This document shows, piece after piece, positions 5,555 to 28,831 of a stretch of DNA of 34,154 nt. The notes beneath the pieces were generated by a model that was given only the letters and a program-made list of their open reading frames with translations, was not told the origin of the DNA and ran no database searches. Made by a program: the position numbers and the translations under genes. Source of the stretch: a virus (lineage: Duplodnaviria > Caudoviricetes); IMG/VR virus record IMGVR_UViG_3300023184_000332, positions 1-34,154 of that record. One strand, given 5' to 3'. The number at the start of each line of letters is the position of its first letter. Position 1 is the stretch's first letter.

Positions 5555-6088
5555 ATGGCTTTAACGATCAGCGGATCAGCAGGTCAAAGCGGAAGTCTTT
5601 CGCTTAACGACACCACGTTAAGCAGTTCAGTTACAATCTCTTTGGCCGGATCATTGTCAACGGTTACTCAACCAGCAACAATCCCGGCAAACACAAGCGA
5701 TTCGAATTGGACATTGACGGGTATGTATGCGAACTCTTTTTACAAAGGAAATCTCGCAAATCTTACCACTTCAAAGACTTCTGGTGGAAATATCACGTTC
5801 AACACAATTCCCAACGCATTGTGCATTTCAGGCAACTGCACATACGTAAACACATTGTACGTAAAAGATGTTGGCGGAGGCGGAGTGCGTATTTATTGGC
5901 CAAGCGTTTTGCATTCAGGCGCAGCAAACGATACAGCCAATTACACTATTGTCCCGCCATATGGAACACTTCAGATTACTGTTCCAATGCAAGGATTGGC
6001 TGTTGCTACTTCTTTATTGTCGTTGACATCAAATGCAAATACGACATCTGCTTTTGTCGTTCTTGCTTATAAAGATGCGGCAAACTAA
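5555..6088 (+). CDS. Putative virion structural protein
   Basis: Ser/Thr/Gly/Asn-rich beta protein within the neck module; AGGAG RBS. Confidence 0.45.
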   Translation: MALTISGSAGQSGSLSLNDTTLSSSVTISLAGSLSTVTQPATIPANTSDSNWTLTGMYANSFYKGNLANLTTSKTSGGNITFNTIPNALCISGNCTYVNTLYVKDVGGGGVRIYWPSVLHSGAANDTANYTIVPPYGTLQITVPMQGLAVATSLLSLTSNANTTSAFVVLAYKDAAN

Positions 6089-8827: not shown

Positions 8828-11704
8828 ATGGCTGGAAACGGTAATCTGAATTTAACCGGAGAATCGTTTGAAAAGCTAAAGAGCCTTATCGACGATCTTA
8901 CAAAATCAGCCAATCAAGCAAAAGAAGCTATAGCCGGAATATTCAATTCTGGAAAAATAGGAAAAGATTGGTCAAAATCGTTAAACGATGCTGTCAAGGC
9001 ATTGAATGGAGTTTCCAAAAAGAACTCGAATAAATCTTCTGATAGTAGTAAATCTAAAGATAAATCTGATGCCGCAAAAGCAGCGGCTAAATTAATTGAA
9101 AAGGCTGCCCGTGTCGATGCAAAATTGAAGGATGCTGCTGCAAAAGCAGCAGCTAAAGTAATTGCTCAAGCGGCAAGCCTGTCTGCTAAAGCAACAAAGC
9201 AAGCGGCAAGTGCGTCTGCTAAAGCAACAACGCAAGCGGCAAACCTGTCTGCTAAAGCAACAAAGCAAGCGGCAAACTTGTCTGCTAAAGCAATAAAGCA
9301 AGCGGCAAACTTGTCTTCCAGAATGACAAAGCAAGCGGCAAATGCGTCTGCAAGATTAACCAAACAGGCAGCAAGTCTGTCCGCTAAAATAACCGCTCAA
9401 TCTGCCAGTACAGCAGCCAGAATGACAACGCAAGCGGCAAACTTGTCTTCCAGAATGACAAGGCAAGCGGCAAATGCGTATGCAAGAGCAACAGCCCAAG
9501 CGTCGGCACAGCAAGCCGCACAAGCAAGGGCAGCAGCCAGAATGACAACGCAAGCGGCAAATGCTTCTGCCAGAATAACAATTCAGGCGGCAAATGCGTC
9601 CGCAAGATTAACCAGCCAAGCGGCAAGAGCAAGAGCGGCACAGGTAATTTCTGCGGCAAGAGCAGCTAATGCTGCGGCTAAACCGGCTGCAACCAAAAAA
9701 TCGTTCTTGAATATGGGATTCATAGATAGGCTTGTCCAAGCATCTACATTAAAAGAAAGGATTCGGATCGCTTCATCAATGTTTTTTGGTGGAAAAAGTG
9801 CAGGACAACAATATAGAAACCAAAACGGAAAAGGTGGAAGTTTTGCCAACACGGGCGGAAACTTGTTTTCAAGGTATGGCGGCGCAGGTGCTTTAGGTGG
9901 AGTCCTTGGAAAATTCCGTGTGTTTCAAAAACCGTTCCCAGGATCAGAAAGAAACCAGTTTGCACTTGGAGACAGCACGGCGGCATTTGCCAATATAATA
10001 CATGGTGCTGGAATGACAGTAAAAGGTGTATTTTCCGGTTTAACTTCGGCGGCATCGTTGGCAGCAAAAGGATTGGCTTCTATACCTGTAGGAATAGTAT
10101 CGTTGCTCAATCCTGCTGTTGGCGCACTTCTTTCAAGCGTAAACGATATGTTTTTTGGTATATTTAACACACTATCAGCCGCTATATCAGGCGTTATAGG
10201 GTCTCTTACCAACCTTTCTACAGCACTTCTTGGATTTGCATCAAGAGCGGTTGAATCTGCATCAAAATTTACCGAAACCGTTAATGCTGCAAAAGTTGTA
10301 ACAGGGGTTGAAACTGGCAATAAATTAAAAACAACTGCAATTGAACTTCAAAGAAATTACGGATTGTCGGCCATAGATAGTATGCGTGGCATGGGAAGAA
10401 TTGCCGGAATGCTTGTCCAGCAAGGCGGGTTTACCCAAAAAGAAGCCGGAATCCAGTCCGAAGAAATAGCCAGACAGTTGGCTGACGTAGCATCTGTCAA
10501 TAACAGAAACATAGAAGATCTTATGCGCGATATGATGTCCGGTCTTGCCGGACGATTTACGCCTATGAGAAAAAACATGATGGGATTTCAAGCTCCTGTT
10601 CTTGATATTATGGCCAAAAATAAAGGGATAGCAAATCCAAATCTTCGTACCGATTTAGTCGCAAGAACAAAAATGTTCATAGGGGAATTTACACGCCAAG
10701 CGGGACTGTTTGCAGGCGACTTGGAAAACACAAGGTTTGAATTTGCCAACCAGAAAAGGAAATTCCTTGGAGGATTTGAGGCACTTTTTATGTCTGTAGG
10801 CCAAATACTTGAGCCGTTTGCCAAAGTTGTGCTATTTGCTGCAAATGATCTTATGGATCAATTGCTTTCAATAATAGAACCGTTCGCAGTTAATCCGTTC
10901 CAGACATTCAAAACGGAAATAGAAAGTTTTGCGTCGTATGTGTCTTACGCTAAAAACGTAATTATTTCTATGGTAAAACAAATATGGAGTTTAAGACAAG
11001 AGATTTCTGAACTTGCCATAAACTTAGCAAATTTTGGATTGGAAATAGCTAGGGCAGTTTTGAATATCACTTTGGCTGTACTTAATGGGGCATTTGCAAT
11101 TACCGATGCGTTTGGCGGGATAGTCGCTACAAGCGAACTTCTTGCGTCGTCATTGCAAGGACTTTCCCGTTTGATAAATTTTCTTTCTGGTGGTCCGATG
11201 ATGGGAGCGATAGTGGGAGGAATGGCGGCTCCGCTGTTGGCTCCACTGGTGGGTCCGGTGGGTCCACTGGTGGGTCCGCTGATTGGAGCGATGGTGGGAG
11301 GAGTGGGTAAACCAAATAAAAACAAGCCATTTGATCGTGTTGACGTTATGCAAAAAAAACTTATGGATAATCTTGGAAAGATTGATTTAGATATGAACGA
11401 TGTGCTTGACTGGTTCAAAAACGCTGCGCCAGCGGCAGCAAAAGCGGGCAACGTAGCACCACAAGACCCCCTTGCGGCGGCAGGAAGAATGGTACAATAT
11501 TTTGATCCTGCGGCCTTTAGAGATGCCGTGCAAGAGAGAGAAATGGGCGTTCAAACAAGGATTGCAAATGCGGCAGAAAAAATACTTCTGGTTCTTGAAA
11601 AACCAGACCCATTACACCCAAAAATTGCAGGACCAATGGCTGTGCCTATCGGCCTTGGCGCGATGGGCGTGCTTGAAGGAATGAAACGAGTAGCTAAACC
11701 ATGA
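8828..11704 (+). CDS. Tail tape measure protein
   Basis: 958 aa, Ala/Gly-rich and helical, with core 'ASKFTETVN..LADVASVNN..SGLAG' and hydrophobic segments; GAGG RBS. Confidence 0.85.
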   Translation: MAGNGNLNLTGESFEKLKSLIDDLTKSANQAKEAIAGIFNSGKIGKDWSKSLNDAVKALNGVSKKNSNKSSDSSKSKDKSDAAKAAAKLIEKAARVDAKLKDAAAKAAAKVIAQAASLSAKATKQAASASAKATTQAANLSAKATKQAANLSAKAIKQAANLSSRMTKQAANASARLTKQAASLSAKITAQSASTAARMTTQAANLSSRMTRQAANAYARATAQASAQQAAQARAAARMTTQAANASARITIQAANASARLTSQAARARAAQVISAARAANAAAKPAATKKSFLNMGFIDRLVQASTLKERIRIASSMFFGGKSAGQQYRNQNGKGGSFANTGGNLFSRYGGAGALGGVLGKFRVFQKPFPGSERNQFALGDSTAAFANIIHGAGMTVKGVFSGLTSAASLAAKGLASIPVGIVSLLNPAVGALLSSVNDMFFGIFNTLSAAISGVIGSLTNLSTALLGFASRAVESASKFTETVNAAKVVTGVETGNKLKTTAIELQRNYGLSAIDSMRGMGRIAGMLVQQGGFTQKEAGIQSEEIARQLADVASVNNRNIEDLMRDMMSGLAGRFTPMRKNMMGFQAPVLDIMAKNKGIANPNLRTDLVARTKMFIGEFTRQAGLFAGDLENTRFEFANQKRKFLGGFEALFMSVGQILEPFAKVVLFAANDLMDQLLSIIEPFAVNPFQTFKTEIESFASYVSYAKNVIISMVKQIWSLRQEISELAINLANFGLEIARAVLNITLAVLNGAFAITDAFGGIVATSELLASSLQGLSRLINFLSGGPMMGAIVGGMAAPLLAPLVGPVGPLVGPLIGAMVGGVGKPNKNKPFDRVDVMQKKLMDNLGKIDLDMNDVLDWFKNAAPAAAKAGNVAPQDPLAAAGRMVQYFDPAAFRDAVQEREMGVQTRIANAAEKILLVLEKPDPLHPKIAGPMAVPIGLGAMGVLEGMKRVAKP
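9167..9631 (+). repeat. 33-bp (11-aa) tandem repeats in the tape measure gene
   Basis: About 14 units like CAAGCGGCAAACYTGTCTGCTAAAGCAACAAAG (QAANLSAKATK), starting 9167, 9200, 9233 ... 9497, then 9551, 9584, 9617. Confidence 0.9.
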
Positions 11705-13538: not shown

Positions 13539-14096
13539 TTACGACCTGAAAATATGACCGTCTTCGAGTTTGTAACCATTCAATTCAGCAAACTTTTTCA
13601 TTTTTTCCACGCTTTTGGAAACAATGCTATGTGCCCGTGCTGACGATATGCCGCTTTGTATAGCAATATTTTTAAGTGTCTGTTTTTTACATCCAATCCC
13701 GTAATACTTACACAAAAACGACTTATATCTTTTGCTAAGACAATCCATAAGGTCTTCAAGTCTTGAGTAGTCTACTGAATGAAAATCGTGTTCGTATGTT
13801 GAAGCCAAATTTTCAAAATCCCAATTGTTTGATACTGACATTTCATTTCGCTTTTTCCTGAATGAATGTCTCAATTCTGAAGTTATTGCGTGCTTTACAT
13901 GCTTGTAGGCATAGGTCGAAAACTTCCCCTTTTCAGGGTCAAATGATCTGGATGCCCTCACTACAGCCATTAACGCTATCGACTTGTAATCTTCGATATT
14001 ACGTTTTGCCGAATCAGGAAGCCGAATCCTTTTGAGTGCAAAGAAAGCTATGGCCATATTGTCTTCCACTAAAGAGTTGAGCTCAGATTCTTCCAC
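13539..14096 (-). CDS. Phage sigma-70 family RNA polymerase sigma factor
   Basis: Region 2 'FDPEKGKFSTYAYKHVKHAI' and region 4 HTH 'TLKNIAIQSGISSARAHSI'. Confidence 0.85.
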   Translation of the reverse strand: MEESELNSLVEDNMAIAFFALKRIRLPDSAKRNIEDYKSIALMAVVRASRSFDPEKGKFSTYAYKHVKHAITSELRHSFRKKRNEMSVSNNWDFENLASTYEHDFHSVDYSRLEDLMDCLSKRYKSFLCKYYGIGCKKQTLKNIAIQSGISSARAHSIVSKSVEKMKKFAELNGYKLEDGHIFRS

Positions 14097-17366: not shown

Positions 17367-18029
17367 TCAGAATGGGGGATCATCACCATCTTGAAAAGAA
17401 CTTGAAGGAATTATCGCAGATTTTAAAGAACTTGGATCATTGGTCGCATATTTAGCGACGGCTTCACCAAGTCCGGTTTTTGGCTTTGGAACTCTTGGAA
17501 CAGAAGGCGGCTTGAAGTCTTTAGACTTCTCGTATTCTGACCAGATCCAGTTTGGTGCATCGTTTGGATTCGATGTCCGATAGTCCCACTTTTCAGGCGT
17601 TACAGCAGGAGTAAGTACCGTATCGCAAGGCATTATATTGATAATGCTGTATTTAAGAGAACCGTCGGCTTTTGATTTTTGGGTCGTCTGGATAAATACA
17701 GACCTTCCAAGAATATTGCCAACGGAATAAGCAGCCGCTTCGACTTCCGAAAGATCCCTACCTTCAATAGAATGAACCAGTTTCCGAAGGTTGGCCTTAG
17801 CACCCATAGATGCTGTGTAATCCTGATAGATCACAAAAGGCTTGCCTTGAGAAGTTAGCGTATCAAGTTCAAACTTAAACTTGAGCGATCCATTCCACGT
17901 CTGGTAAAAGGAGTTGAACTGACGGCCAATGTTGTAAATGCCCGTGATACATCCGCGATGCAACTTTGCAGGTGGAAGTTCACGATCAAAAACACCCATT
18001 CCAATAACCAGTTCTTCATGGCTTGACAT
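17367..18029 (-). CDS. Putative ssDNA-binding/replication protein
   Basis: Beta-rich core and acidic tail ending DGDDPPF; lies between primase and helicase. Confidence 0.6.
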   Translation of the reverse strand: MSSHEELVIGMGVFDRELPPAKLHRGCITGIYNIGRQFNSFYQTWNGSLKFKFELDTLTSQGKPFVIYQDYTASMGAKANLRKLVHSIEGRDLSEVEAAAYSVGNILGRSVFIQTTQKSKADGSLKYSIINIMPCDTVLTPAVTPEKWDYRTSNPNDAPNWIWSEYEKSKDFKPPSVPRVPKPKTGLGEAVAKYATNDPSSLKSAIIPSSSFQDGDDPPF

Positions 18030-18030
18030 C

Positions 18031-18936
18031 TTATTTTCCTTCTGAGTAGATCTGCTTGATATGACTGATGCAGTCATGAACACTTGAAAACGCTCCAAGT
18101 GCAACGCACACATCAACTAACGACATTGTTCCGCACGTAGAAGACCATACTTGTCCAGTATCAGGACGAACAGAAGCGGAAGGCGTCTCGTCGTTTTCTC
18201 CCGGCCTGTGACATGGTATCCATCCGCTGGCGTTTTGTTTATTACCAGCCAACCTAAGTCCGCACCGTTTGAGGAATTCTATCTTGTCTGGTATCGCATT
18301 TACACAATCCGAAAACAGACCAGAATTAGACCTGACAGGGAACGTCCACGGGTCGCGATTGGCAATTTCGGGAAAAGACTTATCTACTTCCCTATCAACG
18401 ATTTCTTTCATAAGCCATCCAGGAGCATAAGCAATCCGTGATTGAAGCGGATTCAGCCCTGATTCAAACCTGTATCTCCTTCCATCAGTAAAACAACTTG
18501 GAGGGCATATCGCCATACATTTATCTCCAAGACATAAGACCTCTTCGTGCTTACCTACTCCTTTCCACAATTGGGTTTTCGGTATGCTTCTTTTCCACCA
18601 ATCCGGTTGGCGGAAATACAAATGGAGTCCACCACCACCAGTCTTGACAGACCAAGTAGACGGCAATACTGGGTGAGACGTAAACCAGTCTGAAGCTTTA
18701 GACGGGTTATCAATGTCGATCACAATAAGCCTGTTTACGGTTCCGGTAGCCAAGGCGATATTGCAATCCATTCCAAGAATCATATCGAGAGGAACATGCT
18801 TGCCCCACCATTGAGAGGTTCGTATGATCGGTTTTTTTGCATCTTTTGACATTGGTATGCAACTCAAACCAAATTCACCATAAAGCTTGGAAGCCCAAGC
18901 GTTTATCGAGTCTTTATGAGAAGTTGTGCTACTCAT
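18031..18936 (-). CDS. Bifunctional DNA primase/polymerase (Prim-Pol) domain protein
   Basis: NIALATG..LIVIDID, VKTGGGGLHLYF and ICPPS motifs; C-terminal zinc-ribbon-like 'IPCHRPGENDETPSASV'. Confidence 0.85.
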   Translation of the reverse strand: MSSTTSHKDSINAWASKLYGEFGLSCIPMSKDAKKPIIRTSQWWGKHVPLDMILGMDCNIALATGTVNRLIVIDIDNPSKASDWFTSHPVLPSTWSVKTGGGGLHLYFRQPDWWKRSIPKTQLWKGVGKHEEVLCLGDKCMAICPPSCFTDGRRYRFESGLNPLQSRIAYAPGWLMKEIVDREVDKSFPEIANRDPWTFPVRSNSGLFSDCVNAIPDKIEFLKRCGLRLAGNKQNASGWIPCHRPGENDETPSASVRPDTGQVWSSTCGTMSLVDVCVALGAFSSVHDCISHIKQIYSEGK

Positions 18937-19130
18937 AGACGAAAATCTTTTCGAGTGACAAGTTTTATATTGTCACGGCGGATCCTGATATCTACTGGCG
19001 CGTCGATACCTATTCTTGCCTTGTCTCTTTGAATATCAATAAGAGATATTACAACCACAACCGGATTCCCGCTTTGGTCATAAGCGTCGATCATGAATTT
19101 TTCAGTCACCTGCCGTGTTATCACCAGCAT
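18933..19130 (-). CDS. csrA: Carbon storage regulator (CsrA/RsmA) homologue
   Basis: MLVITRQ..E...I..VVISL...ARIGIDAPVDIRIRR. Confidence 0.88.
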   Translation of the reverse strand: MLVITRQVTEKFMIDAYDQSGNPVVVVISLIDIQRDKARIGIDAPVDIRIRRDNIKLVTRKDFRL

Positions 19131-19165: not shown

Positions 19166-19720
19166 TTAAGATTGTGGCTGCTTGTCAAGGTTATCAAAAA
19201 CAGACTTTAACGCTTCCTCGAACACCTGCAATGCAGTATTACCGCAAGCAACCCAACGTGCAGACAACGCCAAACCTTGCTGCTTCCAGTCGGTACAAGT
19301 ACCTGCTGGGATAAGCACTCCGTAAACTCCATTCACAAGATGGTGCAAAGGTATAGCGTATTTATCTGAGTGACTCTTGAACCATGCGCCGCAATCAGAA
19401 GTTTTTGGCGGAACCTGTGGCGGAGCAATTGCGGTTTCTGGTTCTTTCGTATTGGCCTGTGGTGAACCAGGTTTTACATGCTTGCTTAACTGAAGGTTAA
19501 TCTGGGACTCAACCGAATCAAGACAAAGGCTGTACATCTGATTGCGAACTTCGTCCAACTTCTCAGGAGAAGAAAGAAGACCAATATCAGTTACAAGTTC
19601 AACCGAACACTCGGCTCCAAAGGAACCAAAATTCGGTAGACCTACCTTTTTTGTAAGCCCCGTTCTTATAATGAACGTAGCATTATTATTCTGCATGATC
19701 CCGTCCTTTCGTGGATACAT
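19166..19720 (-). CDS. Hypothetical protein
   Basis: 184-aa ORF; the start could be the second Met (MQNNN). Confidence 0.65.
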   Translation of the reverse strand: MYPRKDGIMQNNNATFIIRTGLTKKVGLPNFGSFGAECSVELVTDIGLLSSPEKLDEVRNQMYSLCLDSVESQINLQLSKHVKPGSPQANTKEPETAIAPPQVPPKTSDCGAWFKSHSDKYAIPLHHLVNGVYGVLIPAGTCTDWKQQGLALSARWVACGNTALQVFEEALKSVFDNLDKQPQS

Positions 19721-19885: not shown

Positions 19886-20185
19886 CTAAATGTTGAAGTT
19901 GTTTACGCAGTTCGTAATGTCAGGCACATGATTTGGCCAAGAGTTTTTTATGGCCGGATTTTCTTTTGACATTCTGGCTGATTCTAAAACCTCTATTGCA
20001 GATAAAATTTCTTTATGCGAAGCCGTATAAACAAACATAAGCCTTGATATTCCTTCAGCAAGAAGCCTTATTCTGGTCTGGTCGATTTCCTTTTGGCTTT
20101 TGTGCTGATCTCTTGATCTTCTCCCTGTAGACGCAATATAGTCAGACGAATTGAGTGCTTTTCCAAGCGAGTCATCGGTACTCAT
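19886..20185 (-). CDS. Hypothetical protein
   Basis: ATGA-coupled to the YqaJ gene (MSTDDSL). Confidence 0.55.
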   Translation of the reverse strand: MSTDDSLGKALNSSDYIASTGRRSRDQHKSQKEIDQTRIRLLAEGISRLMFVYTASHKEILSAIEVLESARMSKENPAIKNSWPNHVPDITNCVNNFNI

Positions 20186-21075
20186 AGAGTAATTCCTGTT
20201 CTTGAAATGGAAAGCCTTAGAGAGCAAGGTTTTTCCCTGAATTCCTTCTCCAGTTCAGGGTACTTTAGCACTAGACGCTTTTCAGTAGGTTTGTTTGACG
20301 GTACGGTAGTCACATCGACCTTGTACAAATGATTTTCAACGTGTAAATCAGATGGCGAGCCAAGATCTTCTAAGATTTGTGTTTTAAGGTTTGACTTCTC
20401 GGCGGTCAGTTTTTTGATTTCAAGATCAATTTCAAGGTATCTTTGAAGTTTTGAATCTGGAAGAAAATCGCAATCAGACCTTTGCTTACGTGGTTTAACA
20501 TCCGGTGGAGTACGTTGTAAAACATTGTATGTCCAAAACTTAGTACATACTTCTATACATTCTTGCAGAAGATCAAAATGATCTTCGACCTTGATATGAT
20601 AGTCGTGGTATTTTGCATCTTTTGTTGACCATACCGCAAGCCAGCCCTCAACAAACCCCGTAACCCAGCACTGCCAAAGAACTTGTATGATGTAGTAAAT
20701 TGGCGGCGTTAAGTATAAGGAAGTCGTGATTGTTTTGGCTTCCACAGGTCCAACAGCAAGAAAACCACTGTAAGCCACTCCGTCAAGTGTTGCTGATGCC
20801 CAAGCGAGACTTGGTTCGCAGTGATTTACGGCAAGCTGATAATTTCTTACATCCATCCCATGTTTTGCGGAAAACTCTGCTATTACAAACAGTTCATGGC
20901 GATTACCACGGGTCATCGAATCTGTTTGAAAAATGACTCCACCTGTGGAAACACCAGTTTTGTAATTGTAAACGTCAAGGATGTTTCCAAAAGGAGATAG
21001 CCCCATAACTTTAGCAACTTCAGAAGCTCCAAGGCTTTTCATCCTTCGTGCGTGAAATTGTTCGTTTTCAGGCAT
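20182..21075 (-). CDS. YqaJ/lambda-exonuclease family nuclease
   Basis: RRMKSLGASEV..VMGLSPF, RGNRHE, ATLDG, VEAKT and YYIIQV..Q motifs. Confidence 0.88.
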   Translation of the reverse strand: MPENEQFHARRMKSLGASEVAKVMGLSPFGNILDVYNYKTGVSTGGVIFQTDSMTRGNRHELFVIAEFSAKHGMDVRNYQLAVNHCEPSLAWASATLDGVAYSGFLAVGPVEAKTITTSLYLTPPIYYIIQVLWQCWVTGFVEGWLAVWSTKDAKYHDYHIKVEDHFDLLQECIEVCTKFWTYNVLQRTPPDVKPRKQRSDCDFLPDSKLQRYLEIDLEIKKLTAEKSNLKTQILEDLGSPSDLHVENHLYKVDVTTVPSNKPTEKRLVLKYPELEKEFREKPCSLRLSISRTGITL

Positions 21076-21350: not shown

Positions 21351-22055
21351 GTGATAAAAAAAACCAAACCACACAAATCAACCAACGACAAAACCGCAAC
21401 TGTTATAGATTGGAAAAAAGATGTAGACCTTGACGGGAAAGTATTTTCTGGAAGAAGCGATGGACTGGACGCAAATAATGTTCCGTCTATTGAGGTTCTT
21501 GCGTCAACGCAGGCTCCTGTAAAGATTGATCCAAGGTTAAATTATGGGAGAGTCAAAGAAAGAATCGAAAAGCAATGGCCCAATTTGATTTTAGCCGCAA
21601 ATAACGGCTACGAGTTTGCTTCGATGGCCAAGGCTATTGGTATTTCGCTGCGGGCAATGCAGATCTATTTACAAAAAAATCCTGAGCGAAAACGCGAACT
21701 TATCCAGGGTCGATTGAAGATTAGGGATGTGGCTATCGGGGTAATCCTTAATGCCGCAAATAAAGGAAACTGGATACCAGCCGCATGGCTTCTTGAGCGA
21801 CTTTACTGGCAAGAGTTCGCAAAACCTGAAGTAAGGTTGCAGTTACTTGACAGAGTGACAAATCTGACCGAAGTATCTCAGACATTTGGCGGAAAATCTC
21901 TCCAAGAAATCGGCAACGAATTAAGGGAAGTTCATGGCGAAAACCCAAATTACAAACGAAGAATTGAGCAGTCGCAGGTTTGCGCTTCAGAAAATGGAGC
22001 CAAACTGGATCATGGAAGGATCAAAAACGGTCAAGAAGAGGGTGAACCAAACTGA
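21351..22055 (+). CDS. terS: Terminase small subunit (putative)
   Basis: HTH-like 'ASMAKAIGISLRAMQIYL' and 'WIPAAWLLER' motif; directly upstream of terL; start uncertain (21300 or 21351). Confidence 0.65.
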   Translation: MIKKTKPHKSTNDKTATVIDWKKDVDLDGKVFSGRSDGLDANNVPSIEVLASTQAPVKIDPRLNYGRVKERIEKQWPNLILAANNGYEFASMAKAIGISLRAMQIYLQKNPERKRELIQGRLKIRDVAIGVILNAANKGNWIPAAWLLERLYWQEFAKPEVRLQLLDRVTNLTEVSQTFGGKSLQEIGNELREVHGENPNYKRRIEQSQVCASENGAKLDHGRIKNGQEEGEPN

Positions 22056-23211
22056 GTGGACTGTTCCTCAGATGCTGTTCTGGACTGACGAATCAAGGCA
22101 AAGGCTGTTTTGTGGTGGTGTTGGAGCAGGAAAAACCTACGCTGGATGTGTAGAGATTGTAAATCAGCCTCCAAACACACTTGGCATAGCCATAAGTCCT
22201 ACTTACACAATGCTTAAAGATACGACACTAAGGACGTTTCTTGAACTTTATGAAGGTTCTGGACTTATTGTGTCGTTCAATAGGACTGATATGTCCATGA
22301 TTCTGAAAGGAAATCGCACAGTTTTATGGAGATCAGCAGATAAACCTGAAAAGCTTCGCGGAATCAATGCGGGGTGGGCATGGATGGATGAAGCGGCCTT
22401 TTGCGAAGAGGAAGCGTACAATATTGTTTTGGGAAGATTGAGGCGTCAGCCTGGAAAGCTGTGGCTAACAACGACTCCAAACGGAAAGCAGAATTGGGTT
22501 TACAGAATTAGCCAAGGCCATGCCGTTTCTGTAACAAGGGCTTCAACCAGAACCAATCAGTTTAACCCAGAATTTTATGTAACCCAAATGCTTTCGTCGT
22601 ATGATCCCAAAAGGGCACTCCAAGAAATTGATGCTGAATTTGTGGACACTGACGGAGCATTAATGAAACGAGCCTGGTTCCAAAAATGGGAAGGCCTTGT
22701 CCCCGAAAGGTTGCAGTTATGCCGATCATGGGATTCGGCGGCTACTGAATCCGGTGGAGATTATACAGTCGGTATGCTTATGGCAAACGTGGTCGGAACC
22801 GACAAGATTATCATTACGGATGTACTTAGAGGGCAGTATTCTGCGGACACTGTAGACGCAATGATCCGGACTTGCGCGGACACTGACGGCCAAAAAGTAT
22901 CGGTAGTTCTTGAGCAAGAACCTGGCAGTGCCGGTAAAAGGCTCTTAACGCAACAGGTGAGGGCTTTGCACGGTCATAGGGTTCAATGGTACGCTTCTGG
23001 TCAAAAGAAGCTTGCAAGGGCTGTTCCGGTCGCAAGAGCAGCCGCACAAGGCAGAGTGTACTACCTTGAGGGCGAATGGAATGAAGCGTTTTTTACAGAG
23101 ATTGAGTCCTTCACTGGTACTGTTGTCGATGAACACGATGACCAAGTTGACGCAATGAGCCTTGGATTTACGCATCTTGAAGGAAACATGCGAAGGGTTA
23201 TTGCTGTGTGA
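21934..23211 (+). CDS. terL: Terminase large subunit
   Basis: Walker A GGVGAGKT, Walker B WAWMDEAA, TTTP coupling motif, nuclease RSWDSAA...HDDQVDA; start may be 21994 or 22012. Confidence 0.92.
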   Translation: MAKTQITNEELSSRRFALQKMEPNWIMEGSKTVKKRVNQTEWTVPQMLFWTDESRQRLFCGGVGAGKTYAGCVEIVNQPPNTLGIAISPTYTMLKDTTLRTFLELYEGSGLIVSFNRTDMSMILKGNRTVLWRSADKPEKLRGINAGWAWMDEAAFCEEEAYNIVLGRLRRQPGKLWLTTTPNGKQNWVYRISQGHAVSVTRASTRTNQFNPEFYVTQMLSSYDPKRALQEIDAEFVDTDGALMKRAWFQKWEGLVPERLQLCRSWDSAATESGGDYTVGMLMANVVGTDKIIITDVLRGQYSADTVDAMIRTCADTDGQKVSVVLEQEPGSAGKRLLTQQVRALHGHRVQWYASGQKKLARAVPVARAAAQGRVYYLEGEWNEAFFTEIESFTGTVVDEHDDQVDAMSLGFTHLEGNMRRVIAV

Positions 23212-23217
23212 TGAGTC

Positions 23218-23682
23218 TTAATCAGTGATATTGTGATATGAAAGTGCTATGCAAATAGCGTCAGACTCACCATCGGTAAGATCATCAAGTGAAGGGTATT
23301 TTTCTTTGCAATAAACGATTGAGCGTTTTTTGCCAAGTTTTTTGTCAATACCATCGAGAACTTTTTGCCAAGTTTTAGGCATGACGAATTCGTATGGTAT
23401 TCCAAGTCCCGAAGACAACCCCTGCAAGATTCCAAAGCATTGCCCGAAAGTAAACATTGACAAAACTCCCTGCTTAGGCATTGCGTGAACCCTTTCGATG
23501 ACGATTGACGTTCCATGTGGAAGTGTTCGCCAATCTTCAAATATTTTTTTTATAGATTGGCAGTCAATCACTTTTTTTGTACCGAATTTTACAACTGGCA
23601 TTTCGTATGTCGCTAGGACATCGCGGTTTTTAACAATTGCAATTCCGCCAGATAAGCTGGGGTCAACTCCGATGATTATCAT
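23218..23682 (-). CDS. RuvC-like Holliday junction resolvase
   Basis: IIGVDPSLSGGIA, IVIERVHAMPKQGV..FTFG, PKTWQK and DGESDAICIA motifs. Confidence 0.85.
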   Translation of the reverse strand: MIIIGVDPSLSGGIAIVKNRDVLATYEMPVVKFGTKKVIDCQSIKKIFEDWRTLPHGTSIVIERVHAMPKQGVLSMFTFGQCFGILQGLSSGLGIPYEFVMPKTWQKVLDGIDKKLGKKRSIVYCKEKYPSLDDLTDGESDAICIALSYHNITD

Positions 23683-23966
23683 GCATCCATCTTCTTTCTA
23701 CGCTTGACTTCCTGATTCAGATACCAGATCGCCTTTTCGATATCCTCAATCGCGTTGCCCTTCAAATCTGCTCGCCAAATGTATTTGATTGCATTCCCAG
23801 TGTTAAACATCATGTGTTGGGTGATTTCAATACACTCAACGCCTGACGGGTGGCTTGTGTAATGCTTCGGATGGTTGACCGGGTCAGGTGGAGTCGGCCC
23901 TGTTGTCCATTGAAATTCCAGAGCATTAAACCTTGCCGAAAGTTCGTCTAATTCCTCTGTGCTCAT
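23679..23966 (-). CDS. DUF3310 protein (T7 gp1.7-like nucleotide kinase family)
   Basis: DPVNHPKHY...ECIEI...FNTGNAIKYIWRA..K...EDIEKAIWYL; start at ATG 23966 (GGAGG, ATGA overlap). Confidence 0.85.
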   Translation of the reverse strand: MSTEELDELSARFNALEFQWTTGPTPPDPVNHPKHYTSHPSGVECIEITQHMMFNTGNAIKYIWRADLKGNAIEDIEKAIWYLNQEVKRRKKMDA

Positions 23967-24223
23967 TCGACCGGCCTCCAGTGTGTGGGTGTTTTGCCTA
24001 TCCCGTTCATAACAGGATTTATCGACTTCGGGAACATCCTTTGACTGATATGGCTCCAATAGGCCGTATTAGAATGGAACCACATCCAGTCATCGGGGAA
24101 CCGTCCATCACGTAAACCGAACATCTCGCCGCCGCCGCTGTCGGCATTCATGCGGACAATCACCGTCTGCCCCACCTCCGGCAATGTTGCCGGATCGTCT
24201 GTAATCTCGGTCCATGTGCTCAT
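23963..24223 (-). CDS. DUF551-like protein (module C)
   Basis: WTEITDDPATLPE..TVIVR...THWRPVE. Confidence 0.65.
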   Translation of the reverse strand: MSTWTEITDDPATLPEVGQTVIVRMNADSGGGEMFGLRDGRFPDDWMWFHSNTAYWSHISQRMFPKSINPVMNGIGKTPTHWRPVE

Positions 24224-24555
24224 TCAACCGGCCTCCAATGTGTAGGTGGGACAGGTCCAACTGGTCTTATATGGTCGCAACACAGGGACTTGTCGTACTT
24301 AGACCATGCCGCCAATGTCGAATAATACCATGGCCAGTCGCTGCCCGTGCGGCGGTAGTCTGGCCGAAGACCGAAGCACTCGCCGCCCGCATTGCGTATT
24401 ACAACAAGTCGGCTCAACTCCGGTAACGTGGCCGGGTCGTCTGTGATCTTGATCCATTCCGGCTCCGGCTTCACCTGCATCATGTTGAACACGGTCAACG
24501 CCGCGGCCTTAGCCTCGCCATGTGGTAGGCTGGCGATAAAATCAAGCGTTATCAT
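24220..24555 (-). CDS. Module B + DUF551-like module C fusion
   Basis: LDFIASLPHGEAKAAALTVFNMM followed by WIKITDDPATLPE...THWRPVE. Confidence 0.7.
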   Translation of the reverse strand: MITLDFIASLPHGEAKAAALTVFNMMQVKPEPEWIKITDDPATLPELSRLVVIRNAGGECFGLRPDYRRTGSDWPWYYSTLAAWSKYDKSLCCDHIRPVGPVPPTHWRPVE

Positions 24556-24631
24556 CTTGTAGATCTCCTATAAAACTGTCGATTCTGCTGTCCAGAACAC
24601 GTAAATCGTCGATGGTCGCCACTATCGGCAT
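24542..24631 (-). CDS. 29-aa mini-ORF (MPIVATIDDLRVLDSRIDSFIGDLQDDNA)
   Basis: Hand-translated; AGGAG 5 nt upstream; stops inside the junction motif. An alternative frame (24552-24635) is also open. Confidence 0.4.
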   Translation of the reverse strand: MPIVATIDDLRVLDSRIDSFIGDLQDDNA

Positions 24632-24841
24632 TCATGCTCCTAGGTATGTCGCGACCCGATGCCAACTTCGGCGCCAATGCCTAGCAACTTCGACTTTATC
24701 TGCGGAGCTTGAGGATAAACTCGTAACCTTGAGTTCAGATCCTACCGGATCCGGCCTTGCTTGCATCATGTTGTAAACAGTCAGGGCTGCGGCCTTAGCC
24801 TCGCCATGCTCCAGCGATGCGATAAAATCAAGCGTTTTCAT
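24632..24841 (-). CDS. Module B protein with unique C-terminus
   Basis: MKTLDFIASLEHGEAKAAALTVYNMM. Confidence 0.65.
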   Translation of the reverse strand: MKTLDFIASLEHGEAKAAALTVYNMMQARPDPVGSELKVTSLSSSSADKVEVARHWRRSWHRVATYLGA

Positions 24842-25061
24842 CAGTGTTCTCCTTTGCTTTGTCGATCTCTTTCAAACAGGCTTCCTTGGCTTCTTCAAGG
24901 CTTTTGGATTCCGGCATAATTAGCTTGCTAAATTGGCTCCATCGAACTTCTGATCTATAGGTCAGATTGTCGGTAAGTAGCCAGATTTGGGCGATGACTT
25001 CTCCTCGCCTTATTCGCCACTGGTTGCCGTCTACCGTGATCCATCGTTCAAGCGGTGTCAT
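24828..25061 (-). CDS. Module A protein
   Basis: MTPLERWITVDGNQWR...SEVRWSQFSKLI...LEEAKEACLKEI; start at the motif ATG 25061. Confidence 0.7.
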   Translation of the reverse strand: MTPLERWITVDGNQWRIRRGEVIAQIWLLTDNLTYRSEVRWSQFSKLIMPESKSLEEAKEACLKEIDKAKENTDENA

Positions 25062-25399
25062 TGGATCGGCCTCCATTGTGTGACAATGCAATCCTGCGGT
25101 TCCAATTCTTCCTCGTAACAAACAATGGCTTGTTTGTCCGTATCCCAAAACGGGTTGACAACTTTTGACCAGCACCAATCGCTATTCTTTTCCGTCGCCG
25201 CTTTACGCGATGCCAGAAATTCGCATCCTTCAATTGTCCGAACCACGATCAGCAGGCAAGGCGGCGGCAACCTGTCGGGCGAGCCCTCGATGGTGATCCA
25301 TATCGGTGTCCACACCGGCAGCATCAAATTGAAAATGGCCTTCGCTGCGGCCTTGGCTTCGCCGTGCGGCAGGCTGGCGATAAAATCAAGCGGTGTCAT
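25058..25399 (-). CDS. Module B + DUF551-like module C fusion
   Basis: MTPLDFIASLPHGEAKAAA...WITIEGSPDRLP...VTQWRPIQ. Confidence 0.7.
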   Translation of the reverse strand: MTPLDFIASLPHGEAKAAAKAIFNLMLPVWTPIWITIEGSPDRLPPPCLLIVVRTIEGCEFLASRKAATEKNSDWCWSKVVNPFWDTDKQAIVCYEEELEPQDCIVTQWRPIQ

Positions 25400-25646
25400 C
25401 AATGTGCTCCTTTGCTGCTTCAATCGCTTTCAAACAGGCTTCTTTAGCTTCTTCAAGGCACATGAAATCCGGCAAAATCAGCTTGCTAAATTCGGACCAG
25501 CGAACTTCTGACCTATATGTTGGATTATCGCTGCGCAGCCAGTATGTTAGATTATCGCTGCGCAGCCAGATCACGGCAATAATCTCGCCGCACCTCAGCC
25601 GCCACTGGTTGCCGTCTACCGTGATCCATCGTTCAAGCGGTGTCAT
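25386..25646 (-). CDS. Module A protein with internal 9-aa duplication
   Basis: Paralogue of 24828-25061; WLRSDNLTY-WLRSDNPTY. Confidence 0.7.
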   Translation of the reverse strand: MTPLERWITVDGNQWRLRCGEIIAVIWLRSDNLTYWLRSDNPTYRSEVRWSEFSKLILPDFMCLEEAKEACLKAIEAAKEHIDDTA

Positions 25647-25803
25647 TGTTTTCCTCGTTAGCCTGAATCTTCTGGATCATGGCAAGCAAGAGTGTTGTGG
25701 GAATGGTGATGCGTTCCCGTTTGTTTTCCAATTGCATAGTTGCGCAACGCTTCCATCCATCAATAACTTCTGGTGTCAGCAGTTCTTTCTCAGTCGGTGT
25801 CAT
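25633..25803 (-). CDS. 56-aa ORF (MTPTEKELLTPEVIDGWKRC...ENNDTA)
   Basis: Hand-translated; starts and stops inside successive junction motifs. Confidence 0.6.
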   Translation of the reverse strand: MTPTEKELLTPEVIDGWKRCATMQLENKRERITIPTTLLLAMIQKIQANEENNDTA

Positions 25804-25895
25804 TGTCGTCTCTCTCTAAGCATGTTGTAAACGGCCAGCATTAAAGCTGCGGACATGCCGGCTATCGAAGATACGATAATATCAAACGGCGTCAT
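25800..25895 (-). CDS. 31-aa putative membrane peptide (MTPFDIIVSSIAGMSAALMLAVYNMLRERRQ)
   Basis: Hand-translated; ATGA-coupled at both ends; hydrophobic stretch followed by a basic tail. Confidence 0.55.
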   Translation of the reverse strand: MTPFDIIVSSIAGMSAALMLAVYNMLRERRQ

Positions 25896-26371
25896 TGCAC
25901 TTGGCCCTTCTTAAACTCGTGATACTTGGCGATTGCAAACGCTGAACGCTTATCGCTTGCTCCCCGTAGCAGGTATAGCGGATCGCCCTTCTTGCCGGAC
26001 GGCCCGTAGATTGATTCCAAGCCAGCCCTGAGCGTTGCATCGTTAAGCTTGCCGCCAGCCGTAATCCACTGACCATATTCGCGGCGTGTGTACACGGCAA
26101 GCGTCAGGGCCTCATAGATGGCAACCCTCTTCAGTTCCCCGATAAAATACATCGTCTGGATCGACGATTCACCTACCGGACGGCCTTGGCAAGCAAACCC
26201 CTCGACTGCAAATTCGTGAGATTTTGCCCAAGGCGATTGCATGATTTTAACGAGTTCGGCGTTTTCAATCTTATCCGCCATTTGGATGTTAAAGATTTTG
26301 CTATGATCGCATGCAATTATCATGCATATTCCGCTATGCGTGCTTCCGGGGTCGATTCCGGTAATTACCAT
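25892..26371 (-). CDS. Second RuvC/RNase H-fold nuclease
   Basis: ITGIDPGSTHSG, FAVE, TMYFIGEL and SDKRSAFAIA. Confidence 0.7.
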   Translation of the reverse strand: MVITGIDPGSTHSGICMIIACDHSKIFNIQMADKIENAELVKIMQSPWAKSHEFAVEGFACQGRPVGESSIQTMYFIGELKRVAIYEALTLAVYTRREYGQWITAGGKLNDATLRAGLESIYGPSGKKGDPLYLLRGASDKRSAFAIAKYHEFKKGQVQ

Positions 26372-26751
26372 GATTCTAACTCCTTGATATAAACAACAGG
26401 TCGCTTGGTAAGTTCGGCCTCAAGATCGGCAACCTTGGCCTCAAGGTTGATAATTTGCAATCCTGCATATTCAAGCGGTGTCATTTTCGTCTTTAATTCT
26501 TGTTTCTCGCGTCCTGTCCGTTCGTATTTGTCAAAATTTTTAATGAGATGGCAGGCGATCTCGTCAAATCTCAAACTCAAAAGTTCGCCTGGTTTTAAAT
26601 TGAAATTTACATACCATTGCGACTGGTAATCGAATATGAAACGGACGTACACGTCCCATTCAGACCAGCTAATCTTGTAACCAGCCAGCGGCGTTAGTGT
26701 GCGAAGATAGTTGATAAAGTTATCTGCTGCTTTGCGTTCAAACGGTGTCAT
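26365..26751 (-). CDS. Module D + coiled-coil fusion
   Basis: MTPFERKAADNFINYLR...LIKNFDKYERT, then an in-frame internal MTPLEY...LEAKVADLEAEL. Confidence 0.7.
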   Translation of the reverse strand: MTPFERKAADNFINYLRTLTPLAGYKISWSEWDVYVRFIFDYQSQWYVNFNLKPGELLSLRFDEIACHLIKNFDKYERTGREKQELKTKMTPLEYAGLQIINLEAKVADLEAELTKRPVVYIKELESW

Positions 26752-26968
26752 CAATATTCTCCTTTGCTCTTTCGATCTCTTTCAAACAGGCTTCTTTGGC
26801 TTCTTCAAGGCATTTGGATTCCGCCATAATTAGCTTGCTAAATTGGCTCCAGCGAACTTCTGACCATCGTTCAAGCGGTGTCTCCTCGCAATCACAGCAA
26901 TTTGTGCATAAGTTGCAGACCTTGCAAAGTTTATAATCTCGGTGTTTGTGGCATTCCGGGCAGTTCAT
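26738..26968 (-). CDS. Cys-rich zinc finger + truncated module A fusion
   Basis: CPEC..CKVCNLCTNCCDC then TPLERW-SEVRWSQF...EAKEACLKEI. Confidence 0.7.
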   Translation of the reverse strand: MNCPECHKHRDYKLCKVCNLCTNCCDCEETPLERWSEVRWSQFSKLIMAESKCLEEAKEACLKEIERAKENIDDTV

Positions 26969-27234
26969 ACCGTCCTCAATTCTCGTTTCTTGTGTGCTGT
27001 CCGTTCGTATTTGTCAAAATTTTTAATGAGATAACAAGCGATATCGTCGAAGTTAAGACTCAAGAGGATGCTTGGCTGTAAATCGAAAGTTACACACCAT
27101 TGCGACTGGTAATCAAATCTGGTACGGGCGTTCAAGTCGAACTCGAACCACGTAATCTTGTAAGCATCAAGCCTCGGCAGTGCCCGAAGATATTTGATAA
27201 AGTTATCTGCTGCTTCGCGTTCAAGCGGTGTCAT
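26965..27234 (-). CDS. Module D protein
   Basis: MTPLEREAADNFIKYLR...LIKNFDKYERT; paralogue of 26365-26751. Confidence 0.7.
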   Translation of the reverse strand: MTPLEREAADNFIKYLRALPRLDAYKITWFEFDLNARTRFDYQSQWCVTFDLQPSILLSLNFDDIACYLIKNFDKYERTAHKKRELRTV

Positions 27235-27448
27235 TTTCGTCCTCAGTTCTCGTTTCTTGTGTGCTGTCCAAGCCGTCCTTTGGTTGGATGAAACTTGCCA
27301 TTGAGCAAGCGTGGCAGTAGCAGCCCGGTACAACCTTGTTTTTACGCCCTATCATATTTGCCAGATGCTCAATCGAGCTTTGACCGTGAAGGGCCTGAAA
27401 TCGTTTCTCGATTGTTTCTGCTTTTCTGCGTATTAAGTTTTCTTTCAT
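27221..27448 (-). CDS. Hypothetical protein
   Basis: ATGA-coupled; CYCHAC motif; ends ENDTA* in the junction motif. Confidence 0.6.
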   Translation of the reverse strand: MKENLIRRKAETIEKRFQALHGQSSIEHLANMIGRKNKVVPGCYCHACSMASFIQPKDGLDSTQETRTEDENDTA

Positions 27449-27669
27449 TTTGGCCCCTTGTTTTTGCCGCGAGAAAAGTGGTTTTCAAACGACGATTCCC
27501 GAATCAAATTGACGTTCTCTATTTCGCGACCAACGTATTGAGTTAGCATCTTTTCGTACCAAAATTGCACGATTGGCGGCCCGTTGTCAGGTTCCAAGTA
27601 GGACTCAATAACGGAATAGCCTGGGAAACCTTTGACCTTTACGATGTCGCCACGCTCAAATCGTGACAT
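27445..27669 (-). CDS. Small hypothetical protein (SH3/KOW-like start)
   Basis: MSRFERGDIVKVKG. Confidence 0.6.
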   Translation of the reverse strand: MSRFERGDIVKVKGFPGYSVIESYLEPDNGPPIVQFWYEKMLTQYVGREIENVNLIRESSFENHFSRGKNKGPK

Positions 27670-28000
27670 TATTTATGTTCCCGTATTCGTTTGAGTACCC
27701 TTGCCAAGGAACCGCAAGCTGCGACTCTTCAGCGTAAATTTCGTATCCGTTTTTGGTTGTGCAAACATGCACAAGTCTTTCAGCACGTGGCATTTGCATT
27801 ACTTGTTTGGTGATCTCTGCATCGCTTAGGCTGGCCAAATCTGGATTATTGGCCCGTTCAATCATTATATGGCTTGCAAGGTAAGCCAGATCACGCTTAC
27901 GTTTTGCAACCAAATATGGAGTCTGCATCCAAGGCGTCATCAGGAAGGAGTACATGGCTTTTTCATGGCCTAAGTCCTTCATTGGTATCAAGTTTGGCAT
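27656..28000 (-). CDS. Hypothetical protein
   Basis: ORF tiling the minus strand; AAGGA RBS. Confidence 0.6.
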   Translation of the reverse strand: MPNLIPMKDLGHEKAMYSFLMTPWMQTPYLVAKRKRDLAYLASHIMIERANNPDLASLSDAEITKQVMQMPRAERLVHVCTTKNGYEIYAEESQLAVPWQGYSNEYGNINNVTI

Positions 28001-28036
28001 CGTTTAGGATCCTTAAAAGTGTCCAAACCGGCAACG

Positions 28037-28396
28037 TCAGTTAGATGAGTTCTGGCCGGACCTGGCGGCAAATCGGCTGTCGCCGCCAATTGGTTGCCAG
28101 CGTGCCCTTTTTCCACCAGTTTGATAATACAACCGATTGGCTTGAATTTTCAAAAGGCAAGCCTTGAGTTTTGCTTTGTATTTGAAGTAATCAGCAAGAT
28201 TACTTCGGCGCCATTCTATTGAGGATTCGCCGTTAAATAAAGCGAAGTCAATCGACATGGTTGCAAGCCTGTGCAAGCATCTTGCCCGTTCAAAATCGAA
28301 TTCTTGAAAACCAGTCCATCTTTTGGGCTGGAGATTTGCCAAATTTTTTCGGATTGCTTTTTTTGGATTTGTGCTAGCTGTGGCGAATTGGATCAT
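28037..28396 (-). CDS. Hypothetical basic protein
   Basis: ATGA-coupled ORF. Confidence 0.6.
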   Translation of the reverse strand: MIQFATASTNPKKAIRKNLANLQPKRWTGFQEFDFERARCLHRLATMSIDFALFNGESSIEWRRSNLADYFKYKAKLKACLLKIQANRLYYQTGGKRARWQPIGGDSRFAARSGQNSSN

Positions 28397-28614
28397 TGTG
28401 ATTTTCCTGCAGATAAAGCTTTCAACTCATCCATGCTGATACCTTGAGAATTCAAGTAGTGCAGCCCAGAATACTTTGCTGCAACCATCCCTGAATATGC
28501 GTCCAAAGAGTCCAGGTTGCACCTAGAGAACTGCGGGTCGTCCCGTAAAACTGCAACCATGAGTGCAATTTTTTGGGTCATATCTTTTATTAGACGATCT
28601 CTCTTATCAATCAT
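28393..28614 (-). CDS. Hypothetical protein
   Basis: Overlap-coupled ORF with GGGGA RBS. Confidence 0.6.
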   Translation of the reverse strand: MIDKRDRLIKDMTQKIALMVAVLRDDPQFSRCNLDSLDAYSGMVAAKYSGLHYLNSQGISMDELKALSAGKSQ

Positions 28615-28831
28615 TGACTTTCCCCTTTATTTTTGCCTCAACAACGTCCCCGTGTTCAGTCAGGGAAAATCGTTTGAGGTGCTTTTTCTTGGCTCCAAAA
28701 AAGTCAACTGTACGGGCAGTAAGGTCGATCTTGCACGTAAGAGTCTTTTTAGATAGGTTTGGGTAATACGTTTCGAGCCTTTTTTTTCCTTTGTCCTCGA
28801 CCTTTTCAAGGAACGCTTCAAGTGGCGTCAT
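28607..28831 (-). CDS. Hypothetical basic protein (starts MTPLE)
   Basis: Begins in a junction-motif copy. Confidence 0.6.
   Translation of the reverse strand: MTPLEAFLEKVEDKGKKRLETYYPNLSKKTLTCKIDLTARTVDFFGAKKKHLKRFSLTEHGDVVEAKIKGKVND

Follow-up and report, generated by a model that had tools for sequence, protein, structure and literature searches.

Why should a row of unrelated phage genes begin with the same fourteen bases? The question is raised by a virus record of 34,154 bases (IMGVR_UViG_3300023184_000332; "the window" below always means this whole stretch), which is a tailed phage with 45% guanine plus cytosine and an estimated completeness of 71%. It carries a block of small minus-strand genes, mostly without an assigned function, which faces the terminase gene and has a DUF3310 gene and a RuvC-like gene at its end. 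Within this block genes start with ATGACACCGCTTGA, hereafter the motif or the 14-mer. The original prediction, made from the window alone, was that the motif is a recombination site by which any segment can be joined to any cassette, in an integron-like system with no dedicated integrase visible. Comparison with relatives leads us to the view that the motif is a real and well-supported shuffling joint, at which genes and domains are exchanged.

The motif and what it does to the reading frames

All twelve copies with no more than two mismatches are on the minus strand, from 24542 to 28831; shuffled sequence yielded 0.19 copies on average and never more than 2. Five of them are exact (25048, 25386, 25633, 26471 and 27221; the positions first reported for these were the ends of a 15-mer, hence offset by one). 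Thus the earlier description of twelve copies, five of them exact, at the starts of genes or domains on the minus strand stands.

The 14-mer sits entirely within the first five codons of small accessory genes and combines a start codon with stops in both other frames. Three outcomes for the upstream open reading frame (ORF) had been described, and all three are seen. The ORF ends at the first TGA at 25058, 25800 and 25892. It ends at the second TGA at 24542, 24828, 25386, 25633, 26738, 27221 and 28818, with the last residues DNA, ENA, DTA, DTA, DTV, DTA and DAT in that order of position, and the same is true upstream of an additional copy at 27669, which has four mismatches. At 26484 and 26884 the motif is read through in frame. 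The 29-residue ORF ending at 24542 is doubtful; the first TGA of this copy also terminates a 27-residue ORF in a different frame. Relatives give the same picture: among the 97 distinct junctions described below, 51 have an upstream gene that stops at the second TGA, 22 one that stops at the first TGA and 15 one that stops just before the motif, while 8 are read-through and 1 is unassigned. A single cassette, K, stops at either TGA, depending on small changes in its tail.

We call the segment from one motif to the next a cassette. Its median length is 186 bases, and it usually ends with a ribosome-binding-like sequence that serves the next gene; a ribosome-site-like word is present in 28 of the 38 left tails among the junctions. 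From the sequence we infer that genes are translationally coupled across these junctions.

Could duplication of whole genes account for the repeated starts? Eight of the twelve copies head bodies that are duplicated in the window (cassette A twice, B three times and D three times), which leaves seven unrelated downstream bodies, and internal repeats in the array region reach 328 bases. Paralogy of these three bodies thus covers two thirds of the window copies, but it fails for the 20 downstream families found among relatives. The statement that unrelated proteins share the motif is correct.

Re-pairing of cassettes among relatives

Relatives were gathered by a terminase search and by pattern scans, and searches with cassettes D and K as proteins, without their first five residues, then supplied loci that had not been selected on the motif. 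After removal of one record of the same length as the window (L277), which was treated as the window itself, 74 loci remained in addition to the window. Junctions closer than 45 bases to the end of a locus were left out. The pattern scans also gave further contigs with up to five exact copies.

The two closest relatives, L001 and L002, share 99% terminase identity with the window, and L001 is 98% identical to it over 11.8 kb outside the array. Nevertheless their arrays differ from that of the window: K meets D directly at the motif, and B is absent. The block common to the window and L001 (26751-25633) has motif edges as its limits: the first base of one copy at its start and the last base of a second copy at its end. 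Two relatives with 75% terminase identity, L003 and L004, have no copy with two or fewer mismatches in the stretches of them that were examined.

Clustering of 40-base flanks sorts the left sides of the 97 junctions into 38 families and the right sides into 20, and 63 pairings of the two are seen. Each of 13 left families meets from 2 to 6 right families, and each of 10 right families meets from 2 to 22 left families, so that 51 of the 58 families belong to one connected network with nine independent cycles. Cassettes are swapped and reordered as units, both among relatives and in the contigs of sequencing runs.

The pool, which belongs to uncultured freshwater phages, is not confined to one kind of phage. 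A terminase is present in the fetched DNA of 21 of the 41 non-redundant arrays; these terminases fall into five groups with 29-53% identity between groups, and since arrays occur in at least five terminase groups, the cassette pool crosses phage lineages. Cassette D occurs in all eight groups defined by flanks. Other lineages have 1-5 copies, that of the window 8-12 (12 in the window, 8 in the genome G001).

Exchange concerns domains as well as genes. A Cys-rich domain (26968-26885 in the window) is fused in frame, via a decayed motif, to five different partners: shortened B in the window, full B in L267, another cassette in L001, K in L220, and C in the runs X4 and X6, with matching loose ends for the last fusion in runs X3 and X10. 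A partial motif, CCACCGCTTGA, is found at in-frame fusions in the middle of genes (L229 2433-2446; L224 about 5690-5704), which points to microhomology joins that do without the whole 14-mer.

In L253, L255 and L265 cassette K has a start without the motif, MSIELLTP. The ATGA of this start aligns, with a one-base offset, with the second TGA of the motif in L203, and genes may acquire the motif in this way. In L254, L255, L265 and L253 K is followed by another cassette, which begins with ATGAAC...TTGA; its start and second stop are as far apart as in the motif, but the middle bases are different.

Where the breakpoints fall

If the motif is the point of exchange, similarity should break at its edges. 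In 62 pairs of junctions with the same left and a different right family, identity is 0.90 over the 30 bases before the motif and 0.94 within it, and falls to 0.16 over the three bases that follow. Where the right family is shared and the left one differs (355 pairs), identity is 0.35 in the three bases before the motif, 0.93 within it and 0.93 after it. Upstream bases compared between families have an identity of 0.32-0.39.

Because these pairwise junctions had been defined by the motif, alignment ends were also gathered blind to it, in 41 non-redundant arrays (34 of the 75 sequences were dropped as redundant or motif-less). Of 867 alignment ends, 131 lie in the motif, which makes up 2.3% of bases, a 6.7-fold enrichment. 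The peaks are sharp, with 55 starts at motif offsets -1 and 0 and 28 ends on the last base. Two other segments, both belonging to the DUF551-like domain, are enriched too: its THWRP tail (51 ends, 4.2-fold) and its WxEITDDP head (85 ends, 4.5-fold). The arrays therefore have at least three swap points, of which the 14-mer is one. The THWRP tail carries a GGAGG word directly before the next ATG.

Rearrangements are also seen in the contigs of sequencing runs. We used X1, the best-matching run, from a lake metagenome that is perhaps the window's own sample, and four runs from other freshwater studies, X4 and X6 among them. Contigs of X4 and X6 skip 400 bases, from 26468 to 26869, which is the distance between the motifs at 26884 and 26484; contigs of X6 skip 1431 bases, from 25788 to 27220, which is the distance between those at 27234 and 25803. 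Further joints or loose ends in the contigs of the runs fall on the motifs at 24555, 25399, 25804, 25893, 26473-26482, 26751 and 27221 and on the degenerate copy at 27667. Others fall off motifs, for example at 26998, 26360 and 27430.

Hence the proposal that the motif is a point of cassette exchange is borne out by re-pairing, by sharp edges and by skips from motif to motif, and the relatives, rather than keeping one gene order with breakpoints elsewhere, differ in order and break preferentially in the motif.

Conservation of the DNA rather than of the peptide

A shared start MTPLE could simply be a favoured peptide. In 45 distinct D starts, found by their protein body, the codons are however almost fixed: Thr2 is ACA in 35 of 35, Pro3 is CCG in 33 of 34 and Leu4 is CTT in 43 of 43. 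K starts use the same codons (13 of 13, 9 of 9 and 8 of 8). Genome-wide, ACA, CCG and CTT account for 0.24, 0.30 and 0.21 of the use for these amino acids, and in the same D genes codons 8-10 have a silent diversity of 0.51-0.74. The amino acids themselves change in ten D starts at residue 2 and in eleven at residue 3. Given that silent positions are nearly fixed while amino acids vary, it is the DNA that is conserved and not the peptide; free variation of the synonymous positions, which would have spoken for the protein, is not what these starts show.

As a control, MTPL[DE] starts behind GGAG were collected by a codon-degenerate scan (leucine as CTN only), which gave 120 loci of an estimated 700 stretches. 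They hold 105 ORFs in 89 families, of which 10 carry the exact 14-mer (3 of these are the present cassettes) and 26 use CTT. An MTPL[DE] start is thus common in viruses with free codon choice, and the fixation of codons is particular to these arrays. Fixed silent bases, variable residues and the viral control together lead us to reject selection on the peptide MTPLE.

It was claimed that every variant keeps the second TGA; this is true of all 12 copies in the window, but among 24 motif forms of relatives position 13 changes twice, once to TAA (still a stop) and once with loss of the stop. In these 24 forms positions 3, 12 and 14 are invariant, whereas each of positions 5-11 shows from two to six changes. 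The constancy of position 12, a silent site for the downstream gene, fits selection on the second stop. Fusions look rarer than one in three, 8 of 57 motif intervals being divisible by three, but fused copies decay and so leave this count.

How the exchange may proceed

In our opinion, with a probability of about two in three, exchange at the 14-mer occurs by short-homology recombination that is filtered by translatability, and the 14-mer is best read as a joint of the boundary or linker sequence type. Starts with MTPLD or MTPLE are common in viral proteins, and a few of them in one accessory block would have provided the first microhomology. Repeated crossovers there would make the DNA uniform and copy it onto new genes. 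Each joint would bring a start codon, keep the ribosome site of the left piece and stop both other frames; most recombinant products would thus be translatable and survive, and the motif would accumulate. The crossovers themselves may be of low frequency, made by the single-strand-annealing enzymes of the phage or by those of the host between co-infecting or co-resident phages, with no need of a dedicated recombinase. A new pairing need arise only once, since it could then spread through the longer homologies of common cassettes. That recombination is general rather than site-specific is suggested because two other short segments are enriched for breakpoints and fusions use partial motifs.

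Several points weigh against this explanation. The minimal lengths for efficient pairing quoted in PMC3945230, as far as its available text goes, are 23-27 base pairs for Red-beta and 31-34 for RecA. Fourteen bases are below both, which would make exchange infrequent unless a further enzyme takes part. A search of the window (71% complete) for an annealing protein identified none: it gave only a DUF669 lead and an NGO0469-family match below the cut-off (Atlas, NCBIfam), and 19166-19720 received no name. Most alignment ends, 85%, fall outside the motif. The 38 left and 20 right families are upper estimates, because the clustering of 40-base flanks separates some tails that are related. Nor are the junctions independent events, since they have a common ancestry, and X4 and X6 carry the same variant. 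Most junctions use the second stop and the copies are related, so that copying alone would also conserve it. Finally, crossovers are known from contigs alone, none having been caught directly.

A bolder version, on which we would not bet, is that the 14-mer is a frame-proof universal linker which has itself been selected, since with it any accessory gene or domain could be placed after any other, and that it serves an integrase-free cassette pool across unrelated planctomycete phage lineages, possibly with a phage annealing protein for which 14 bases suffice for efficient pairing.

Alternative explanations

The alternative that survives best, which we nevertheless consider rather unlikely, is that illegitimate joins happen anywhere, that only those at gene starts survive and that the motif is a by-product without a role in pairing. 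Other ORF boundaries are indeed 1.6-fold enriched in breakpoints, and 405 of the 867 alignment ends fall in no recognised feature. A tail which in the window precedes a motif-less gene (junction at 27448) is followed by a motif-bearing gene in L252, with only the bases around ATGA in common, and according to the accessible portion of PMC3029335 most mosaic boundaries lack boundary sequences. But enrichment in the motif is about four times that of other ORF boundaries, and identity falls at both of its edges to the base. Moreover, the nine cycles of the network need re-pairing of pieces that already bore the motif, and random joins do not sit well with skips of exactly 400 and 1431 bases.

Does a dedicated site-specific recombinase or DNA-binding protein recognise the motif, making a true integron-like system? 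The base-precise edges would fit this, as would a length too short for efficient general recombination (by the values in PMC3945230, as far as they were available). A tyrosine integrase is present in nine of ten carrier records, and a RuvC-like gene lies in or beside many arrays, members of its cluster being present in 18 of the 40 other arrays. Nevertheless we find this quite improbable. Five carrier integrases score 19-36 bits against an integron-integrase cut-off of 265 (TIGR02249), differ widely in sequence and lie at varying distances from the array. In one carrier (L410 467-1900) the integrase gene is followed by sequence resembling the 3' half of a tRNA, which we read as what is seen at an ordinary prophage attachment site, attP. 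The lineage with most copies has no integrase match: no PF00589 match was found in the window (71% complete, 12 copies) or in G001 (90% complete, 8 copies), which agrees with the earlier remark that no dedicated integrase is visible in the window. Some carriers lack a RuvC-like gene in the fetched DNA.

The motif itself does not look like an integron site either. For 37 left families, 94 bases ending in the motif were folded as DNA and compared with shuffles, and no attC-like hairpins were found: the mean z is 0.18 for the top strand and -0.13 for the bottom strand, with 1 and 2 of 37 below -2. Inspection revealed no dyad symmetry or palindrome in the motif. No repeated promoter or terminator is shared among motif copies, identity dropping to background on both sides; a promoter-like match (10 of 12) lies upstream of the block at 29528-29500, and there are 11 such matches against 6.6 expected, which is close to chance. 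An attI site is definable only by its IntI. With no IntI in the window or in G001, no attC-like hairpins, no dyad symmetry and at least three swap points, "integron-like" can be retained as an analogy only.

Still less credit is due, in our opinion, to the idea that the motif is a signal for translation or regulation, either a binding site like the start-associated sequences (SAS) of mycobacteriophages or a favoured N-terminal peptide, with shuffling being secondary. The motif is always at gene starts, in one orientation and in non-structural genes, as are the SAS (PMC3203893, seen in part). MTPL[DE], common at viral starts, we take to be a helix-capping start, and in the predicted model of a D cassette the first helix begins at residue 3. 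However, residues vary more than silent bases, which excludes selection on the peptide. The motif lies downstream of the start codon, away from the ribosome site; K occurs with and without it; and copies persist in fusions, which need no start.

An assembly artefact can practically be dismissed: repeats of up to 328 bases, the position of the copies at 25048 and 25633 within 14 bases of X1 contig ends and the lack of a bridge over the copy at 26471 in the X1 pieces seen would favour it, but a 14-mer is shorter than usual assembly words, X1 contigs tile the order of the window, L001 bridges 26471 and carries 25633-26751 whole, and the same junctions recur in separately assembled contigs.

The array gene by gene

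From the upstream end, the first copy (28818..28831, minus strand as are all features of the array) differs from the motif at two silent positions; an upstream 133-residue ORF stops at its second TGA, it heads an ORF of 74 residues, and no exchange of partners is seen there. The degenerate copy with four mismatches (27656..27669) also heads a 74-residue ORF, and similarity to L001 breaks at 27667. An exact motif (27221..27234) heads cassette A (26965..27234, 89 residues, no family match). The fusion of the Cys-rich domain through a decayed motif (26871-26884) to shortened cassette B follows at 26738..26968. Shortened B lacks about 130 bases of full B, apparently by deletion between two short G(A/G)TCA words (26871-26865). 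A motif with one mismatch (26738..26751) heads the second copy of A; this copy continues in frame across the exact motif 26471-26484 into a short cassette C (26365..26751).

The RuvC-like resolvase gene within the array (25892..26371) stops at the first TGA of the motif 25882-25895, which heads a hydrophobic cassette of 31 residues (25800..25895). Cassette K (25633..25803, 56 residues, motif 25790-25803) is found in many other phages, also with its motif-less start. Then come cassette B (25386..25646, 86 residues), headed by the exact motif 25633-25646 and having a 27-base tandem duplication at 25519-25572 as read from the sequence; a D head with a DUF551-like domain (25058..25399, 113 residues, exact motif 25386-25399); the second copy of cassette B (24828..25061, exact motif 25048-25061); a D head with another tail (24632..24841, 69 residues, motif 24828-24841); and again a D head with a DUF551-like domain (24220..24555, 111 residues, motif 24542-24555), whose WxEITDDPATLP start and THWRP end are the further swap points. 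The last gene, a stand-alone DUF551-like gene of 86 residues (23963..24223), is joined not via the 14-mer but via a junction of THWRP tail and ATGA. Tandem DUF551-like genes have conserved ends (WxEITDDPATLP ... THWRP) and variable middles (window 23958-24458; L224 7273-8674), and both ends are rich in breakpoints.

The C-terminal domain of the D cassettes is DUF551-like, below the family cut-off. Three of ten D-type proteins match DUF551 (Pfam PF04448) at 14-15 bits over most of the profile, the cut-off being 22 bits, and the weak structural matches of D proteins include many DUF551 proteins (best E 0.007). A fold search of cassette D against solved structures was uninformative (best Z only 3.9). 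Family profile searches gave no match for cassettes A, B and K and the 74-residue ORF, and no Ea22 match was obtained. Rfam has no match anywhere in the window, the GenBank phage collection none to 25058-25803, and cassette D was not found in GTDB genomes.

The phage and its probable host

The window also encodes a prohead protease, an HK97-type capsid protein, tail genes, ThyX, a helicase, a primase-polymerase and the terminase (21934-23211). A phage-encoded sigma factor and a CsrA-like regulator lie at 13539-14096 and 18933-19130. A papain-family cysteine protease gene (241-1128) lies directly upstream of that of the prohead protease, the tape-measure gene has internal repeats (9140-9627), and degenerate direct repeats occupy the contig end (33926-34154). 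A single-sequence model of 17370-18074 was unusable (predicted local distance difference test, pLDDT, 39).

A YqaJ/RecE-like exonuclease gene lies outside the array (20182..21075, minus strand) and is a candidate helper for general recombination; YqaJ is also found in L247, and RecT in L237. Two different RuvC-like resolvase genes flank the accessory block or sit within it (23218-23682 and 25892-26371); other carriers have one of them, or the other, or RusA. The DNA-modification genes of carriers vary near the terminase (TET-associated glycosyltransferase, Mom, methylases; L236 4121-5008, L217 10189-11070, L235 8619-9404).

Most carriers tested look temperate; a tyrosine integrase in nine of ten records fits prophage life. 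The host is probably a planctomycete, on weak evidence. Among GTDB genomes, the RuvC-like gene of the array has a 47% relative in a metagenome-assembled genome (MAG) of Planctomycetaceae and a 42% relative in a Geobacter MAG, the motif array being absent at both loci. The only two named bacterial relatives of one carrier's integrase are Phycisphaerales and Singulisphaera, and the nearest models to one window protein come from Planctomycetota clusters, with template modelling (TM) scores below 0.5.

Comparison with known systems

Integrons are defined by IntI, attI, attC and Pc. The present arrays resemble them in consisting of short cassettes that lack promoters, have the same orientation and are reordered and exchanged from a pool common to several genomes. 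They differ in having neither IntI nor attC hairpin and in a joint that lies within the gene itself. Exchange of units is thus shared with integrons, but by the tests of integrase and site the arrays are not integrons.

The closest likeness is to the boundary or linker sequences of lambdoid phages (Susskind and Botstein 1978; Clark et al. 2001 for HK620; both as cited in PMC3029335 and PMC2839356, from which excerpts were used). These too are short conserved sequences at gene boundaries, common to different phages, with which mosaic joints coincide and which keep the placement and expression of genes. Here, in contrast, one 14-mer serves many unrelated genes in free order; it is coding, stops both other frames and also makes domain fusions.

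In the T4-type phages RB49 and phi1 (Arbiol et al. 2010, PMC2839356, by its accessible text), promoter(early)-stem-loop (PeSL) repeats mark insertions, deletions and replacements in a hypervariable block of small genes; breakpoints between relatives map to the repeat, no dedicated recombinase is known there, and the comparison with integrons was made. Mini-circles were demonstrated as well. The PeSLs are intergenic, with a promoter and a stem-loop that isolate transcription, whereas our motif is coding and much shorter, has no promoter or hairpin and links genes by overlap of stop and start. It behaves like a PeSL with respect to breakpoints; with neither sigma-70 promoter nor stem-loop terminator, we do not count it as one.

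The SAS of Cluster K mycobacteriophages (Pope et al. 2011, PMC3203893, likewise from its accessible part) are asymmetric repeats of 13-14 bases, in one orientation, at the starts of non-structural genes of different families. They lie 3-7 bases upstream of the start, have a ribosome-binding core and have been proposed to act in translation initiation, whereas the 14-mer begins at the ATG, has upstream bases that differ between families, and marks exchange. We therefore do not place it among the SAS.

Relaxed homologous recombination by Rad52-like phage recombinases (De Paepe et al. 2014, PMC3945230, in excerpt) allows temperate phages and prophages to swap small fragments via short diverged homology, and would be the likely engine here; its minimal lengths of 23-34 base pairs exceed 14, and no universal reusable joint is described in the text at hand. 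The ea22/DUF551 genes of lambdoid and Shiga toxin (Stx) phages are likewise small, mosaic and accessory, and DUF551 serves them as a portable domain at the C terminus; the available part of PMC10834534 mentions no common junction motif for them. No description of this motif or of a coding double-stop linker was found in the literature searched, most subscription papers and supplements lying outside its scope.

Since 1978-80 the debate on phage mosaicism has set short conserved linkers against random joins filtered by selection (PMC3029335, PMC2839356, as excerpted). For this debate the arrays offer an unusually clean natural linker: one 14-mer with base-precise edges, dozens of re-paired genes, several phage lineages and conservation at silent sites. 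If our explanation is correct, a common protein start can become a self-spreading joint, from which new operons and new domain fusions would arise without an integrase.

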